Position numbers and translations under genes: made by a program. Shown piece by piece: positions 1 through 5,626 of a stretch of 5,626 nucleotides of DNA (positions are counted from its first letter, which is position 1; every line of letters begins with the position of its first letter). This DNA comes from Candidatus Saccharimonadota bacterium. GTDB taxonomy: Bacteria; Pseudomonadota; Gammaproteobacteria; Enterobacterales; Enterobacteriaceae. The stretch is from NCBI GenBank assembly GCA_002688505.1, contig CP024013.1, positions 265,550-271,175 on the forward strand, in the 5' to 3' direction. The notes beneath the pieces are model-generated. The model saw only the letters and a list, made by a program, of their open reading frames with translations, was not told the origin of the DNA and did no database searches.

Positions 1-77
1 AATATAAATATTTTAACACTTAAATTACTAAGTGGATCTTTTATGTATGATACAATAAATTATTTATATGAATAAAA
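1..77. repeat. Terminal direct repeat, copy 1 (circular-assembly overlap). It also holds a duplicate image of the last 25 codons of the rhamnogalacturonan lyase gene.
   Basis: Read directly: 1..77 (aatataaatattttaacacttaaattactaagtggatcttttatgtatgatacaataaattatttatatgaataaaa) is identical to 5550..5626. An exact repeat flush with both window ends marks a circular contig; 77 is a common de Bruijn k-mer size. Confidence 0.93.
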
Positions 78-1247
78 TTTTTTTTCTTTAAATAAATATA
101 TAAATATAATATTAAATATTATTGAACAAAATAAAGATAAAGATATTTTATAAATATTATTAAAATTTAAAATATATACTATTAATGAAATAATTATAAT
201 TAATATATCTTTTATGTTTATATTTTTAATTAATATATTAAAACATGATAATAATATATTTATATATATATATAAATATATTCCATATATAAAAGAAATT
301 GGTATAATATATTTTATATAAAAAATTCTGTTAATAAAAGATAGAATTATAAATAATATAGATAAAAATATTTGTGTTATTTTAATTGTTTTATTATTAT
401 ATAATATTTTATTATTAATATTATTTTCACTAAGTGTATTAGGAATTGATCCAAATAATGATGAAATAATAATTATAATGCTATTAGAAAAAAATGATTT
501 TTTTAATTGTTCAATAAATTTAATATAATTATTTTTATTTAAATTTAATATTGTTATATATGAAATATGTTCTATTAATAATATAATTATAATTGGAAAA
601 ATAAATATTATAGATTTTATATTAAAATTATACTTATATATAAAAGGTAATTTAAATATTTGTAATCTTTTATTATCAAATATATTAATTTTAAAAGATT
701 TAGATATTATATAATTTATTAAAATACTAAAAATAGTAAATATTTCTATTTTTATATTTTTAAATAAATATTTAAATATTATTAAAATTAAAGTTGTTAG
801 TATAATAATAATATTTAATAAATTATTATTATTTTTAATATTTAAAAAAAATATTTTATATAGAATTTTAAAAAATTCAAATATTATTAAAATAATATTT
901 GTAATAATAATTGATTTAGGAAAAATTAAATTAATTTTAATTAAATTTATATTATTTAAATATATACTAAATAAATAAAATGCTATACCTAAAAACATAA
1001 ATCCACTAAATATAAAATTATATTTATAATTAAAATTATATAACATTAATATTATTGGTATAAATAATATATTTTTTTCTAAATATATAGGCAATATATT
1101 ATTATTATTTAATATTAAATATATTAACATACTTATTCCATTAAATAATATTAAATTTGATATTTCTATATTTAATATAGATGATAACATAATATTATTT
1201 ATAAAATTAATAATTATTTGTTCTAATATATATAAAACTAATTTCAT
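60..1247 (-). CDS. uraA: NCS2-family nucleobase:cation symporter, uracil permease (UraA/PyrP)-like polytopic membrane protein, 395 aa
   Basis: A 395-codon open frame in DNA that is over 90% AT in sampled stretches, where TAA/TAG should occur every few codons by chance. The protein is almost entirely I/L/F/N/K/Y with many hydrophobic segments. Blocks match E. coli UraA as I recall it: ILFNGISMLIYL...ILPIYL vs LLFNGIGTLLYL...IPAYL; IFPK vs LFPP; LLIEHISY vs VIAEHVGH; KSFFSNS....SSLFGSIPNTLSENN vs RSMFANG....SGFFGSTPNTTYGENIG. The spacing between the EH and G-S-x-P-N-T blocks is the same (40 residues). An in-frame TAA lies 4 codons upstream of the ATG at 1247, so that is the first possible Met. 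Stop TAA at 60..62. No Trp codons. Confidence 0.75.
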   Translation of the reverse strand: MKLVLYILEQIIINFINNIMLSSILNIEISNLILFNGISMLIYLILNNNNILPIYLEKNILFIPIILMLYNFNYKYNFIFSGFMFLGIAFYLFSIYLNNINLIKINLIFPKSIIITNIILIIFEFFKILYKIFFLNIKNNNNLLNIIIILTTLILIIFKYLFKNIKIEIFTIFSILINYIISKSFKINIFDNKRLQIFKLPFIYKYNFNIKSIIFIFPIIIILLIEHISYITILNLNKNNYIKFIEQLKKSFFSNSIIIIISSLFGSIPNTLSENNINNKILYNNKTIKITQIFLSILFIILSFINRIFYIKYIIPISFIYGIYLYIYINILLSCFNILIKNINIKDILIIIISLIVYILNFNNIYKISLSLFCSIIFNIIFIYLFKEKKFYSYK

Positions 1248-1375
1248 ATTTAAATTATTTTAATAAAAATTAAGTTAAATTTTTTTAAACATTAAAACTT
1301 TTAATATTTATTTAATTTAATATTATATAATTAATAAAATTTAAAATCATTTTAATTATTTAAATTATATATATT
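1248..1375. promoter_or_regulatory. Divergent intergenic region that presumably holds the permease and repA promoters
   Basis: A 128-bp spacer between divergently oriented start codons (1247 minus, 1376 plus). TATAAT at 1326..1331 sits about 45 nt upstream of repA, but such hexamers are common here. No Shine-Dalgarno sequence precedes either gene. Confidence 0.3.
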
Positions 1376-2245
1376 ATGACATTAAATAAATTGAATATCA
1401 AATTTTTAAAAAAAAAAATAAATGCTAAAAAAAATATTGATTCTATGAGTGCTTTAGAAAGTAATTCTATAGGATATATTACTAGTATTTTAGCTTGCGC
1501 TTCAATACCTCATTCTAAAATAGAAAAAAGTTATTTTAAAAGAAGTAATGGAAAAACATCTTTAAAAATTATTTCAGATCCTGAATATGGTTTACCATAT
1601 GGTGTTGTGCCTAGAATATTAATGATTTGATTATGTACAGAAGTAAAGTTTAAAAAATCAAATATTATATATTTAGGAAAAAATCAAAATGAATTTATTA
1701 AAAAATTAGGAATCATACCTACAGGCGGAGTTAATGGATCTATAGCTAGAATAAAAAAACAAGTTACAAGATTATTTCATTCTACTATATCTCTTAGTGA
1801 CAATAGAAAAAATTCACATAAATTTATAAATTTAACAATAGTAGATAATGGTATTATTTGAAATAATCAAAAAAAAAGAATAGATTGAAATAATAAAATT
1901 ATTTTATCAAAAAAATTCTTTAGTAAAATTAATTCTACTTCTCTTCCTATTGATCTTAGAGTTATACGTGTACTTAGATCCCCATTGGCTATAGATATAT
2001 ATATATGATTAACTTGAAGATCAAGAATGGTTAAAAAAGGAGATAGTGTTTTAATTTCTTGAGAGAAATTAAAATTACAATTTGGTTCTAATTATTGTAA
2101 TTCTATTAAAGGTCTTCATAATTTCAAAAGAGAATTTTTGAAACAATTGAAAATTGTTTGTTTCCTTTATTCGCAAATAAATATTGAAGTACTTAATTGT
2201 GGTTTAAAAATAAATTATAGTAATTCTCATATTCCTTCATATTAA
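1376..2245 (+). CDS. repA: Plasmid replication initiator, RepA_C family (plasmid-encoded RepA), 289 aa under code 4
   Basis: The frame is continuous from ATG 1376 to TAA 2243..2245 if six in-frame TGA codons (1628, 1859, 1886, 2006, 2015, 2060) are read as Trp. No TAA/TAG occurs in frame (checked codon by codon). The translation carries the family-typical string GLPYGVVPRILMIWLCTEV..S..I.LG.NQNEFIKKLGI.PTGG.NGSI.R.K.Q..RLF...I plus LPIDLRVIRVLR-SPLAIDIYIWLTWR and ISWEKLKLQFG.NY. The recoded TGAs fall where this family has conserved Trp (IYxWLxxR). Confidence 0.9.
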
Positions 2246-2293: not shown

Positions 2294-2355
2294 TTATTAT
2301 ATATATATGTTATTATATATATGTGTATTATTATATACATGTATATTATACATGT
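2294..2355 (+). repeat. Four imperfect tandem direct repeats (core TATTATATA[T/C]ATGT), iteron-like; candidate RepA-binding or origin element
   Basis: Read directly: TTATTATATATATATGT (2294..2310), TATTATATATATGT (2311..2324), TATTATATACATGT (2329..2342), TATATTATACATGT (2342..2355). Period is about 13-18 bp. It includes the 10-bp palindrome ATACATGTAT (2336..2345). It lies in the largest non-coding stretch, directly after repA. Confidence 0.45.
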
Positions 2356-2638: not shown

Positions 2639-2719
2639 ATGATAAAAAATGTTCGTTTATATATAACAAATTTATTTTGTATATTAAGTTTAGTTTTAGG
2701 TTTAAATACATCTTTTGCT
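2639..2719 (+). other. Sec-type signal peptide of the polygalacturonase (predicted cleavage after SFA, before SGDT)
   Basis: MIKNVRLYITNLFCILSLVLGLNTSFA|SG has a basic n-region (K3, R6), a hydrophobic core, and a small-x-small (S-F-A) cleavage motif. It aligns with the PehA signal peptide end (SAWA|SDS) from memory. The four Cys positions corresponding to the two PehA disulfides are retained (ESC...DYC, KKC...NGC). Confidence 0.75.
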
Positions 2720-3904
2720 TCAGGAGATACAAGAAATGTAAAAGAACCTTCTATACCTGAAAGTTGTGTAACTTTAAAAGCTAATAATAAGAATTTGACT
2801 ACAACTATACAAAATCAATTAGATTATTGTGCATCTTTTAAAAAAGTTGTAAAATTAGATTTATCTAATAATAAAAATTTTCATTTTTATTCAGGGCCAT
2901 TAAATATTCCATCACACGGTGGATTATTAATTAGTAAAGGTGTTGTTTTATCAGCTATACCTGATCCTTTATTGTATGATACAGGTAATAAAAAATGTGG
3001 TACTATAGATAATAATGGAAATGGATGTAAACCTTTTATAAATGTTAAAAATACTGAAAATAGTGGTATATATGGTGAAGGTACTATAGATGGACAAGGT
3101 AATTCTATTATAAAAGGAACTAAAAAAACTTGGTGAAATTTATCTAGTGAAGCTCAAAAATTAAATAAATCACAAAATGTACCTAGATTAATAGAAATTA
3201 GAAATTCAAAGAATTTTACTATTTATAAAATTTCTTTAAAAAATTCACCTAATTTTCATGTAGCTATGGGTAATGTTAATGGTTTTACTGCATGAAATGT
3301 AAAAATTAATACTCCTGCTGATGCTCGTAATACTGATGGAATAGATCCTGGATCTTCAACTAATATTACTATAGCTCATTCATATATAAGTACTGGAGAT
3401 GATAATATAGCTATTAAAGCTGGTAATGGTCCTACATCTCATGTATCTATATTAAATAACTTTTTTGGTAAAGGTCATGGAATGTCTATAGGTAGTGAAA
3501 CTTCAGGATCAGTAACAGATGTAATTGTAGATAATTTAACAATGGATGGTACTACTAATGGATTACATATAAAAAGTAGTAAAGCAAATGGTGGTTTAGT
3601 TAGTAATATTACATATAAAAATGTTTGTATAAAAAATGTACAATACCCAATTTTATTGGATATGTTCTATCAAAAAATTAATAAAGGAAATAAAATTCCT
3701 CAATTTAAAAATATACATTTTGATAATGTAAAAATATTAACTCCTGGTAAATTTATTTTTAAAGGTCTTAAAGATAATAATATACAAGTTACATTTAATA
3801 ATGTAAGTATTAAGAAAGGATCTGTAATAGAAGAAGAATATTTAACTAAGACAGGTTCAATGAATGAAAATTCTACAGGTAATATTTGTCCTAATTATCA
3901 ATAG
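2639..3904 (+). CDS. pehA: GH28 endo-polygalacturonase (pectinase), PehA-like, 421 aa under code 4
   Basis: The ORF-track fragments 2639..3136 and 3482..3904 share one frame. They join into a continuous frame when TGA 3134 and TGA 3293 are read as Trp, with no in-frame TAA/TAG until TAG 3902..3904. All four GH28 signature motifs are present in order: ARNTDGIDPG, STGDDNIAIK, GKGHGMSIGSE, and NGLHIKS (RIK motif with R>H). The sequence is collinear with Pectobacterium PehA as I recall it: SGDTRNVKEPSIPESCVTLKA vs SDSRTVSEPKTPSSCTTLKA; TWWNL vs SWWEL; NVPRLIEIRNSKNFTIYKISLKNSPNFHV vs NTPRLIQINKSKNFTLYNVSLINSPNFHV; GFTAWN vs GFTAWK. Both recoded TGAs align to PehA Trp residues. Confidence 0.95.
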
Positions 3905-3971: not shown

Positions 3972-5624
3972 ATGAATAAACAAGATATTAAATTAGAAAT
4001 TAATGGTTTAAATTTAATTATTAAAAATAAATTTTTTAAAGTTTATATATATAATTCATATGTTATTAAAATTTTAGTAGATAATGTAAACTTAATAAAT
4101 AATTTAAATGGTAAAAAAACATTTTATTTAGATTGAAATGGCGGTAAATTTATATTTAAACCTAAAAATTTATTTGTATTAAAATATTCAAATAATATTA
4201 TACATGTAATGTATAATATGTTTTTATATGATAAATGTGAGATACAATATCACTATATTTTTAAAAATAATTTATTTGGAATATATAATTATGTAGTTAT
4301 TAATAATTTAAATATAAATATTTCATATAAATTTAGTGAAATAAGAACTGTATATCGCTTTGATTATGAAATAATGAATATGTTATATAATGGTTTATTA
4401 ATACATAAATCATATCTTTATAATTTTTTAAATAAACAAATATTAGTTCAAGATGAAACATGACAATTAAAAGATGGAACTTATTATTCTAAATATGACT
4501 TAGCTGGTTATATAAGAGATACTAATTTTTATGGTATTTATGGTAATAAATATGGTGCTTGAATTATGAATTTTAGTAATGAATATTTTTCAGGAGGTCC
4601 TTTAAAACAAGATTTATTAGTACATCAAGATTCTTTAATTTTAAATTACTTAAATAGTACTCATTTTGGTACTAAAGAATTAATTATACCTAAATATAAA
4701 TGATCTAAAATGTACGGTCCTTGATTAATTTATTTTAATAAAGGTAAAGATATTAATTTAATTTCAGATGCAAATATGTTTTTTAATATCGAAAAAAATA
4801 ATTGACCTTTTAATTGAATAAATGATAAAAATTATCCAATTATAAGATCTACATTAAAAGGTAAATTAAAAAATGTAAAAAATTTATATAAAATTGTTTT
4901 ATGTTCTTCTATTAATGAAGAATTCGATTTTCAAACTTTAGGTTATTTATACAATACAAATTCATTAAATGATGGAACTTTTATAATAAAAAATATTAGA
5001 CCTAATATTTATAATTTATATATATATCCTATAAATGGATATGACTGTAATTTTTTATTTAAAAAAAAAATAAATATTAAATATAATTTGAATTTAGGAA
5101 TATTAGATATAAATGAAAATTTACTAAATAAAAAATTAATTTGAAATATTGGAGAAACAAATCGTAAATCAGATAAATTTAAATATAGTAGTAAAAATAG
5201 AAATTATATTTGACATACATTAGTACCTTCAAATATAAATTTTTATATTTATAAAAAAAATAATATTAAAAAAAATTGATATTATGCTCAAACTAAAAGA
5301 GGTAAATGAAATATATATTTTTACGATAAAATAGATAATAAAAATAGAATACTAAATATAGGTATATCAGGAGTTAGTTCTAATATTTTAGAAAAAAATA
5401 TTAATAAACCTAAATTAGAAATATATTTAAATAATATTTTATTAAATGTACTTTCATATGAAAATGATAAATCAATATATAGAGGTGCTTTAAATAGTGG
5501 TAATTTTTATAGTAAAAAAATATTTATATCAAAAAAATTAATAATAAATAATATAAATATTTTAACACTTAAATTACTAAGTGGATCTTTTATGTATGAT
5601 ACAATAAATTATTTATATGAATAA
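3972..5624 (+). CDS. PL4-family rhamnogalacturonan lyase (RG-I endolyase, RhiE-like), 550 aa under code 4, no signal peptide
   Basis: I checked all 551 codons from ATG 3972 to TAA 5622..5624. There are 11 in-frame TGA codons (4134, 4461, 4560, 4701, 4722, 4803, 4815, 5142, 5211, 5277, 5307) and no TAA/TAG. The ORF-track fragment 4209..4463 is an internal piece. The translation shows PL4-like blocks: YFSGGPLKQDL (cf. SSGGPFHRDI in Aspergillus RGL4), LNYLNSTHFGT, WSKMYGPWLIYFNKG, a mid-domain FIIKNIRPNIYNLYIY (fn3-like), and WNIGETNRKSDKF (cf. IGEWDG). The C-terminal jelly-roll ends SIYRGALNSG...LLSGSFMYDTINYLYE (cf. ...MYDY.RLE). Confidence 0.88.
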
Positions 5625-5626
5625 AA
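5550..5626. repeat. Terminal direct repeat, copy 2 (circular-assembly overlap)
   Basis: Identical to 1..77. Removing one copy gives a 5549-bp circle. Confidence 0.93.

Follow-up and report, generated by a model that had tools for sequence, protein, structure and literature searches.

The window, a stretch of 5,626 nt, is the plasmid of Candidatus Stammera capleta, a tortoise-beetle symbiont, and is read with genetic code 4. Because window positions 1–77 recur exactly at the far end of the contig, the true circle measures 5,549 bp. The final codons of the rhamnogalacturonan lyase gene (RGL) fall inside this terminal repeat, and its stop codon (73–75, forward strand) is reached across the circle junction, beyond the stop of the convergent permease ORF (60–62, reverse strand; Table 1). 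The possibility that rep, the polygalacturonase gene (PG) and RGL are pseudogenes was considered and rejected: they are fragmented under translation table 11 and intact under code 4, the use of which in Stammera is confirmed by the ‘Paleocene origin’ preprint. The first-pass annotation had singled out the permease as the sole gene concerned with neither replication nor pectinases, and this holds only under code 4, in which TGA encodes Trp. The spacer between the divergent permease and repA genes presumably contains the promoters of both. A promoter scan returned 31 sites, against 32.2 expected from shuffled sequences, and no site stood out from this background. A terminator scan, which is uninformative at such a base composition, found none.

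Table 1. Features of the 5,626-nt window; transmembrane motifs are given with their E. coli UraA counterparts
Feature	Position	Strand	Details and basis
UraA-like (NCS2/NAT) permease ORF	60..1247	-	395 aa, ATG start, TAA stop, 8.2% GC
Convergent 3'-end overlap, permease ORF/RGL, 16 bp	60..75		Sequence and code-4 ORFs
PNTLSENNIN = UraA TM10 P284-N-T-T-Y-G-E-N-I-G293, codons 269–278	414..443	-	Alignments
IEHISY = UraA TM8 A240-E-H-V-G-H245, codons 225–230	558..575	-	Alignments
EKNILF = UraA TM3 G70-S-S-F-A-F75, codons 57–62	1062..1079	-	Alignments
Glu-Gln at TMS1 Gln-His position (UraA Q23-H24), codons 9–10	1218..1223	-	Alignments
Spacer between divergent permease and repA genes, 128 bp, 3.1% GC	1248..1375		
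repA	1376..2245	+	289 aa with TGA=Trp; Pfam RepA_C PF04796, E=3.4e-24
GH28 polygalacturonase (PG)	2639..3904	+	421 aa, code-4 ORF; Pfam PF00295, E=5e-65
PL4 rhamnogalacturonan lyase (RGL)	3972..5624	+	550 aa, code-4 ORF; Pfam PF14683 and PF14686
Terminal redundancy, circular contig	5550..5626		Exact 77-bp match to window 1–77

ORF calling recovered the 395-codon permease frame from ATG to TAA as it had been annotated, and the low G+C counts reported for its interior were reproduced (3/60 at 781..840 and 2/60 at 841..900); the 60-mers starting at positions 801–803 consist entirely of A and T. The permease is indeed the most AT-rich gene of the plasmid (8.2% GC, compared with 21.6% for rep, 24.6% for PG and 15.6% for RGL), with the permease–repA spacer lower still. 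Third codon positions are 2.5% GC, and seven amino acids (I, L, N, F, K, S and Y) make up 88% of the residues, Ile alone accounting for 28%. The non-coding spacers span 3–10% GC, a range that takes in the value of the gene, and we counted this overlap against a working permease. An open frame arising by chance was rejected both by shuffling of the region, in which the longest open frame averaged 50 codons and never exceeded 103 (observed 399), and by the neutral simulations described below; the remaining five frames over the permease region contain 7–65 stops.

The assignment to the NCS2 family was confirmed by a match to PF00860 (Xan_ur_permease; 52.6 bits against a cutoff of 27, E=3.9e-14) spanning profile positions 39–379 of 389. 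The structure of E. coli UraA (PDB 3QE7) was matched colinearly (query 8–361, UraA 22–376) with E=1.3e-25, and two further UraA entries, 5XLS and 8OMZ, were also matched colinearly at E ~1e-25; E. coli UraA was the only member of the family in the PDB that the window protein matched on its own. When a combined Stammera and UraA profile was used, the top non-Stammera matches were all Enterobacterales ‘uracil permease’ proteins, E. coli UraA itself having been part of the query profile. Scores against the uracil-permease equivalog model NCBIfam NF007995 (89.4 bits, cutoff 477) and the ncs2 model TIGR00801 (56.5 bits versus 291.8) fell well short of the cutoffs. The 7+7 fold expected for this family was borne out by an AF2 model (pLDDT 75.6, pTM 0.73) whose best Foldseek match was UraA (TM-score 0.76), followed by SLC26, SLC4, UapA and SVCT1, bearing in mind that the model leans towards the UraA fold because its MSA consisted mostly of UraA sequences. 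Thirteen helices are clear and TM10 is unresolved; model confidence is lowest at TM3 and TM10, with pLDDT <50 for residues 273–283. Homology of the permease to E. coli UraA is established, along with its fold and plasmid context, and it may have descended by vertical inheritance as an orthologue of the enterobacterial uracil:H+ symporter UraA.

Canonical NATs are defined by a Gln-His pair in TMS1, by ExxG[DHG] in TMS8 and by [QEP]NxGxxxxT[GRK] in TMS10 (PMC5972032), and the window protein departs from all three. At the first position it carries Glu9-Gln10; among Stammera copies only those of plasmids L006 and L008 retain QH. The TMS8 motif reads E-H-I-S-Y, which keeps the Glu, has Ser in place of the Gly and ends in Tyr. 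In register, the TMS10 motif reads N-N-I-N-N-K-I-L-Y-N, of which only the Asn matches, and a shift by one residue that brings Glu274 into the motif still leaves it without the Gly and the Thr. Since all three functional motifs are broken in the window strain, the substrate of the permease is uncertain.

In UraA, uracil coordination and proton coupling are assigned to Glu241, His245 and Glu290, and additionally to Ser72 and the main chain at Phe73 and Gly289 (PMC5539350). The claim that the substrate-binding segments have diverged is upheld by the alignments. In TM8, the equivalents of Glu241 (Glu226) and His242 (His227) are kept, Gly244 is Ser, and the His of EHVGH has become Tyr, as had been described. 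In TM3, both HMMER and MAFFT alignments place EKNILF on GSSFAF, again as proposed, with Asn59 replacing Ser72; this Asn is shared by every one of the 16 intact Stammera copies. The statement that both uracil-coordinating glutamates are retained stands for one of them only: the Glu241 equivalent is in register, and Glu274 of LSENN falls on Gly289, with Asn275 on Glu290. This register was returned by HMMER, by MAFFT with either 11 or 16 Stammera orthologues and by a 38-sequence family alignment. Within the UraA residue set Glu241 is kept, while His245 is replaced by Tyr, Glu290 by Asn, Ser72 by Asn and Gly289 by Glu. Glu290 and His245 have been described as functionally essential in UraA (PMC5539350), and their replacement was likewise weighed against a working permease.

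Several lines of evidence support the purifying selection that the first-pass annotation had read from the open frame. Firstly, when neutral change was simulated with 120 substitutions, roughly half as many as the 250 that separate the permease from its nearest orthologue, a mean of nine stops arose and none of 400 runs remained open; indels between orthologues total multiples of three. Secondly, 5/5 Gly and 6/7 Pro of the permease fall on columns where UraA Gly or Pro is 100% conserved (permutation p<5e-5), and its single His is the equivalent of His242. Thirdly, NG86 dN/dS within the window's clade was 0.39–0.64, below every one of 60 stop-free neutral simulations with the same A<->T spectrum (1.09 ± 0.21, minimum 0.66). 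Selection therefore holds the frame open and preserves the Gly/Pro structural skeleton. It is relaxed relative to the neighbouring genes, however, permease dN being ~2–5 times that of rep, PG and RGL. Conservation did not differ significantly between the core and gate domains (0.40 vs 0.35, p=0.08).

Whole plasmids (the window and 27 relatives, 28 in total) were scanned with unfiltered HMMER. Intact permease orthologues were found on 16 of them, the window's own included, with amino-acid identities of 20–66% except for two near-identical pairs, which likewise speaks for selection. No copy was present on 10 plasmids, one (L009) carries only a 146-aa remnant left by a deletion, and another has a frameshifted copy. 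Not every Stammera lineage appears to need the permease. The ~400-aa ORFs of plasmids L013, L017 and L018 were examined as potentially missed UraA copies and rejected: that of L018 is a CE8 pectinesterase, and the other two encode a polytopic membrane protein that is unrelated to these copies and matched no family.

This distribution bears on the proposal that the permease is essential to a symbiont putatively unable to make pyrimidines and hence guards the pectinase plasmid against loss. As the only cargo gene able to benefit the bacterium and not the host, the permease could tie the bacterium's own fitness to a plasmid that feeds the host; the gene is under selection, and the substitution of another membrane protein on L013 and L017 means that an arrangement of one membrane protein plus enzymes recurs. 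However, all 12 plasmids without an intact permease persist and still carry rep and PG, selection on the permease is weaker than on PG and RGL, and the ‘Paleocene origin’ preprint, which reports plasmid copy number climbing from egg to larva to adult, credits plasmid persistence to host-beneficial factors. The retention idea of the first-pass annotation is weakened by these counts, and we regard it as very improbable. Neither the permease, nor uraA, nor pyrimidine is mentioned in that preprint or its supplement, and the further Stammera papers searched are likewise silent; none of the literature searched names Stammera together with a uracil permease.

Among the intact copies, residues of the binding site vary in a graded manner. 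Glu241 is kept in 15/16, almost every Stammera copy carries Tyr or Phe in place of His245, Gly293 is replaced by Lys in most (by Asn in the window), and Ile in place of Ala240 is a Stammera-specific invariant. The copies of L006 and L008 (omega 0.16) retain QH, Glu241 and Glu290-Asn291, and that of L006 His245 as well. On the PG+Rep tree, Glu289 arises first, L005 having Glu-Glu at these positions, and Glu290 is lost only later; Glu289 (GAA) is retained in all five members despite AT pressure. At the other extreme, the copies of L004 and L007 are shorter, lack an acidic residue at both 289 and 290, and evolve at an omega of 0.83, within the neutral range.

Such a gradient invites the reading that the permease is on its way out, performing no useful transport in the window lineage, under very weak residual constraint and with loss ahead, as has already happened on other Stammera plasmids. 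The window protein has none of the three motifs intact and lacks both Glu290 and His245, its dN is elevated and its GC content spacer-like, and the sister lineage displays a visible decay series, from the near-neutral L004 and L007 copies to the remnant of L009. Moreover, the gene is missing from the plasmid of a Cassida sp. symbiont (L010) that branches nearby on the PG+Rep tree. On the other hand, the four Cassida-clade copies are all intact, no neutral run stayed open, dN/dS lies below the entire simulated range, 11/12 Gly and Pro are kept at invariant family columns, and Glu226 (GAA) as well as Glu289 has been maintained against AT pressure. On balance, we consider ongoing loss unlikely.

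We instead favour, at a probability of roughly one in two, an eroded, vertically inherited UraA orthologue that may still be used as a remodelled nucleobase-type permease. Its product would still sit in the inner membrane and import a nucleobase-like solute, the simplest candidate being uracil or a different pyrimidine base obtained from the host. The binding site would have been rebuilt around the retained Glu241 and the Stammera-invariant Asn for Ser72, with the second carboxylate apparently moved from 290 to 289 in the window's clade. Coupling and affinity are probably altered, because Tyr or Phe has taken the place of His245, a candidate for proton coupling in UraA, almost throughout Stammera, and uptake might have drifted, for example, towards a low-affinity or facilitated mode. 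A shift in specificity, also proposed in the first-pass annotation, would be compatible with the three broken motifs. Overall, the first-pass observations largely hold and were partly confirmed, and their interpretation is partly supported.

Comparison with characterised relatives places this permease, diverged as it is, in a well-known family; it is not a new kind of system. UraA (3QE7, 5XLS, 8OMZ, 8OO1; NF007995) represents its best non-Stammera relatives, colinear over ~355 residues and with the same 14-TM 7+7 fold (predicted for the permease); the two share Glu241, His242 and Tyr342 as well as the F-G-S-x-P-N-T stretch that precedes TM10. The permease differs from UraA in being only 22% identical and ~34 residues shorter, in replacing 32/37 conserved Gly and 30/30 conserved Ala, and in being plasmid-borne with no adjacent upp. 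Its Stammera orthologues (e.g. CP043979, CP144844, CP043974, CP144783 and CP144847) share a backbone of repA, PG and usually RGL and an extreme composition (6.6–16.7% GC), at 60–64% identity inside the Cassida clade and 29–42% to others. Compared with L006 and L008, the window's clade has lost QH and Glu290, and the His245 kept in L006 is also gone.

Divergent NAT groups without the motifs exist (SVCT3, UapD-like proteins and prokaryotic branches), with functions that are unknown or non-nucleobase (PMC5972032). Like SVCT3 and the fungal UapD-like proteins, the Stammera permease keeps NAT homology and fold while the TMS1, TMS8 and TMS10 motifs have gone. This parallel raises the alternative of a changed job, in which the fold is kept and the substrate is something other than a nucleobase, or a different small solute passes through the protein as through an uncoupled channel or facilitator. 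The Stammera-specific invariants (Asn for Ser72, Ile for Ala240) and the Lys for Gly293 in most copies would fit such a change. The non-canonical NATs are old, separate clades, whereas the Stammera permease appears to be a recent derivative of canonical UraA that lost its motifs to AT mutation pressure and genome reduction, with intermediates visible in sister strains. The series running continuously from L006 and L008 to the window protein speaks for gradual erosion of one function and not a switch, and there is no positive pointer to any other substrate; a new role thus appears distinctly unlikely.

A remodelled nucleobase-type permease that still works would show how little sequence a 7+7 elevator transporter needs, and that residues termed ‘essential’ in E. 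coli UraA (Glu290, His245, QH and the signature motifs) can be replaced or moved, with a bearing on transporters of the SLC23, SLC4 and SLC26 type and on protein evolution under extreme AT bias. It would also constitute a route for nutrients from host to symbiont, in a bacterium whose genome measures 0.27 Mb, encoded on the same plasmid as the pectinases of its host. The combination in its strictest form, namely a working 14-TM elevator transporter composed to 88% of seven amino acids, encoded at 8% GC, devoid of the three motifs and operating through an Asn72/Glu241/Glu289 site with no His245 relay, would amount to a natural minimal, re-engineered NCS2 transporter and strikes us as rather doubtful. 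If the permease does not work, the Stammera plasmids would instead document the stepwise decay of a transporter gene in real lineages, from an intact gene through motif loss and near-neutral evolution to a deletion remnant and, finally, absence.

As a separate observation, a scan with a degenerate DNA pattern for F-G-S-I-P-N-T returned ~120 unrelated AT-rich genomes and one Stammera plasmid that was already known.

Candidatus Stammera capleta is the pectinolytic symbiont of tortoise beetles, and in Megablast searches the window (16.2% GC) grouped with 33 plasmids of this symbiont, the closest match being the plasmid of the Cassida vibex symbiont (87.6% across the rep-PG-RGL part). Sequence comparison revealed an exact 77-bp terminal redundancy, indicating a circular contig with a real circle of 5,549 bp. 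With translation table 11 the permease ORF alone looked intact, and the replication (rep), polygalacturonase (PG) and rhamnogalacturonan lyase (RGL) genes each lay in 2–4 pseudogene-like pieces. With code 4 (TGA = Trp), reported to be in use in Stammera (Stammera preprint), these pieces merged into three full genes; the permease ORF contains no TGA. As the code-4 gene set comprises repA, GH28 and PL4 genes, the permease is the only non-replication, non-pectinase gene, as the first-pass annotation had proposed.

Features of the plasmid window, with GC content and supporting observations
Feature	Coordinates	Strand	Size	GC	Basis or remark
Terminal repeat	1-77 and 5550-5626		77 bp		exact
UraA-like permease	60..1247	-	395 aa	8.2%	Pfam PF00860
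Permease/RGL 3' overlap	60-75		16 bp		convergent genes; stops 60-62 (-) and 73-75 (+)
Permease-repA spacer	1248-1375		128 bp	3.1%	between divergent genes; 4 G/C, below permease gene
repA	1376..2245		289 aa	21.6%	code-4 ORF, Pfam PF04796
Direct repeats	2298-2352			10.4% (rep-PG spacer)	overlapping, imperfect, downstream of repA
GH28 polygalacturonase	2639..3904		421 aa	24.6%	code-4 ORF, Pfam
PL4 rhamnogalacturonan lyase	3972..5624	+	550 aa	15.6%	code-4 ORF, Pfam; 3' end inside terminal repeat, reads across circle junction

The direct repeats, spaced 18 bp apart, are built from units resembling TATATATGT(G)TATTATTAT and could be iterons or an origin, or merely low-complexity AT/TG sequence. No terminator-like structure was found anywhere across window positions 1-1500. 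A public protein collection places P0001, an entry identical to the permease protein, on a 271,175-bp contig, a whole-Stammera-genome rather than plasmid scale; this could reflect an assembly that fused the plasmid with the chromosome, a genuine integration or an effect of record bookkeeping. Plasmids are integrated in some strains according to the Stammera preprint.

The permease adds an extremely eroded new member to a well-known family and does not represent a new kind of system. The NCS2 assignment suggested earlier was borne out by a PF00860 match at 52.6 bits (gathering score 27), with which the database entry is already tagged, although the records examined give no protein name; the NCBIfam uracil-permease equivalog cutoff was missed widely (89 vs 477 bits). 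Sequence matches in the PDB were E. coli UraA entries only (3QE7, 5XLS, 8OMZ; E ~1e-25), with colinear alignment of permease residues 8-361 to UraA 22-376. A profile built from Stammera copies and UraA had enterobacterial 'uracil permease' proteins as its best outside matches which, given the classification of Stammera in Enterobacteriaceae, would fit vertical descent of the gene. An AlphaFold2 model from a 38-sequence alignment (pLDDT 75.6, pTM 0.73) retrieved UraA structures as top Foldseek matches (TM-score of the predicted model 0.76 to 8OO1), as anticipated, followed by the other 7+7 transporters SLC26, Band 3, UapA and SVCT1. Model confidence was lowest at residues 51-70 and 273-283, corresponding to TM3 and TM10, substrate-site elements in UraA.

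The composition of the gene is extreme. Previously reported counts of three G+C in 781..840 and two in 841..900 were exact, and 60-mers starting at 801-803 contain none. Third codon positions have 2.5% GC, and the plasmid's non-coding spacers 3-10%. Ile makes up 28% of the protein, and I, L, N, F, K, S and Y together 88%; there are 5 Gly, 1 Ala, 1 His and no Trp. The observed open frame spans 399 codons, compared with a mean of 50 and a maximum of 103 after shuffling of the region, the other reading frames of which carry 7-65 stops each.

The permease is under selection, but this selection is relaxed. In neutral simulations starting from the window gene with an empirical substitution spectrum (72% A<->T), 120 substitutions introduced on average 9 in-frame stops, and the frame stayed open in 0/400 runs; 250 sites distinguish the gene from its nearest orthologue, and indels among orthologues sum to multiples of three. 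The first-pass claim of purifying selection held for the open frame. NG86 dN/dS in the Cassida clade (the window and L001-L003) was 0.39-0.64 against a minimum of 0.66 in stop-free neutral simulations with the same spectrum (1.09 +/- 0.21), indicating an amino-acid constraint that is real but weak. Among the neighbouring genes, rep gave 0.18-0.31, PG 0.11-0.22 and RGL 0.26-0.33, and permease dN was ~2-5x theirs. Residues with GC-rich codons persist only where the fold requires them: 5/5 Gly and 6/7 Pro fall in columns where enterobacterial UraA sequences have 100% Gly or Pro (permutation p<5e-5), and among the family's conserved residues 32/37 Gly, 30/30 Ala and 5/7 Glu are replaced.

In UraA, uracil is hydrogen-bonded by Glu241 and Glu290, both essential for function, and contacted by the Phe73 and Gly289 backbone amides; a bridging water is held by Ser72 and Glu241, the candidates for proton coupling are Glu241 and His245, and the gate domain contributes Tyr342 (PMC5539350). 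Three independent, concordant alignments (HMMER pairwise, MAFFT including 11 or 16 Stammera copies, and the family alignment of 38 sequences) showed that Glu241, His242 and Tyr342 are kept as Glu226, His227 and Tyr328, and that Ser72, Phe73 (the backbone contact), His245, Gly289 and Glu290 are replaced by Asn59, Ile60, Tyr230, Glu274 and Asn275, respectively. The His-to-Tyr change in EHVGH had been recognised from the sequence. Of the two glutamates then considered retained, Glu226 stood; Glu274 was one residue off register, aligning with Gly289. The register is settled by ungapped sister-strain sequences: E-N-N-I-N in the window corresponds to E-E-N-I-K (L005), S-E-N-V-K (L006), N-E-N-I-K (L008) and N-E-S-I-K (L016). 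Canonical NATs are defined by motifs in TMS1 (Gln-His), TMS8 (E-x-x-G-[D/H/G]) and TMS10 ([Q/E/P]-N-x-G-x-x-x-x-T-[G/R/K]) (PMC5972032); the window has E-Q, E-H-I-S-Y and N-N-I-N-N-K-I-L-Y-N instead, with 0/3 intact. A changed substrate or mode of action would agree with the loss of these motifs, and we regard it as improbable.

We favour, at a probability of roughly one half, a putative UraA-type permease that is still used, with a rebuilt binding site and probably altered coupling; the predicted substrate would most simply be a pyrimidine base from the host. Its notable aspects are extreme composition with demonstrable selection, absence of any canonical NAT motif and the apparent one-residue relocation of a putative binding-site carboxylate. 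No mention of the gene was found in the literature searched.

Among 28 plasmids surveyed, including the window, 16 carry an intact copy, one (L009, CP043981, Parachirida sp. symbiont) a 146-aa in-frame deletion remnant, one (L146, CP144806) a copy interrupted by a frameshift around codon 110 (pseudogene or homopolymer error), and ten no detectable copy. The L009 remnant (4407-4844, doubled coordinates) joins HMM positions 1-94 to 348-388, a clear large internal deletion. On a neighbour-joining tree of PG+Rep, plasmids without the gene are scattered at several separate places, indicating repeated loss; on one nearby branch, L010 (Japanese Cassida sp.) has no copy. Loss of His245 in 15/16 intact copies and Asn at Ser72 in 16/16 mark both changes as old and reconcilable with the gene having been kept over the long term. 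Glu289 originated in the ancestor shared by L005 and the Cassida clade, and the Cassida clade lost Glu290 only afterwards (Lys in L002 and L003; Asn in L001 and the window); all five plasmids of this group encode Glu289 by GAA in spite of AT pressure. Omega was 0.16 for the L006/L008 pair (QH and Glu290 kept) and 0.83, within the neutral range, for L004/L007, in which neither 289 nor 290 is acidic; L004, L007 and L009 together make up a decay series. That the window's gene is in slow decay seems unlikely, if less so than a changed substrate. The earlier proposal that the permease secures plasmid retention, compatible with the other readings, is weakened by the many sister plasmids persisting without it, and is the least probable.

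In L141 (CP144857) the first ~128 permease codons are duplicated in frame across the record ends, which is probably an artefact of circularisation. L003 (CP043974, Cassida viridis) has its polygalacturonase divided between ORFs of 289 aa and 160 aa. L013 (CP144781) and L017 (CP043988), without a UraA-like gene, encode a different polytopic membrane protein of ~400 aa (MKFNFLKDNKINFQYTVMFTALAESLSN...), which had no Pfam match at E<=1e-3 and no NCBIfam match at E<=1 and looks MFS-like by eye; a membrane protein beside digestive enzymes therefore recurs on Stammera plasmids. Cargo also varies (L011-L018, L020 and others): GH67 alpha-glucuronidase (~660 aa) often replaces or accompanies RGL, L018 carries a CE8 pectinesterase, and L015 and L016 carry GH67 and the UraA-like gene together.
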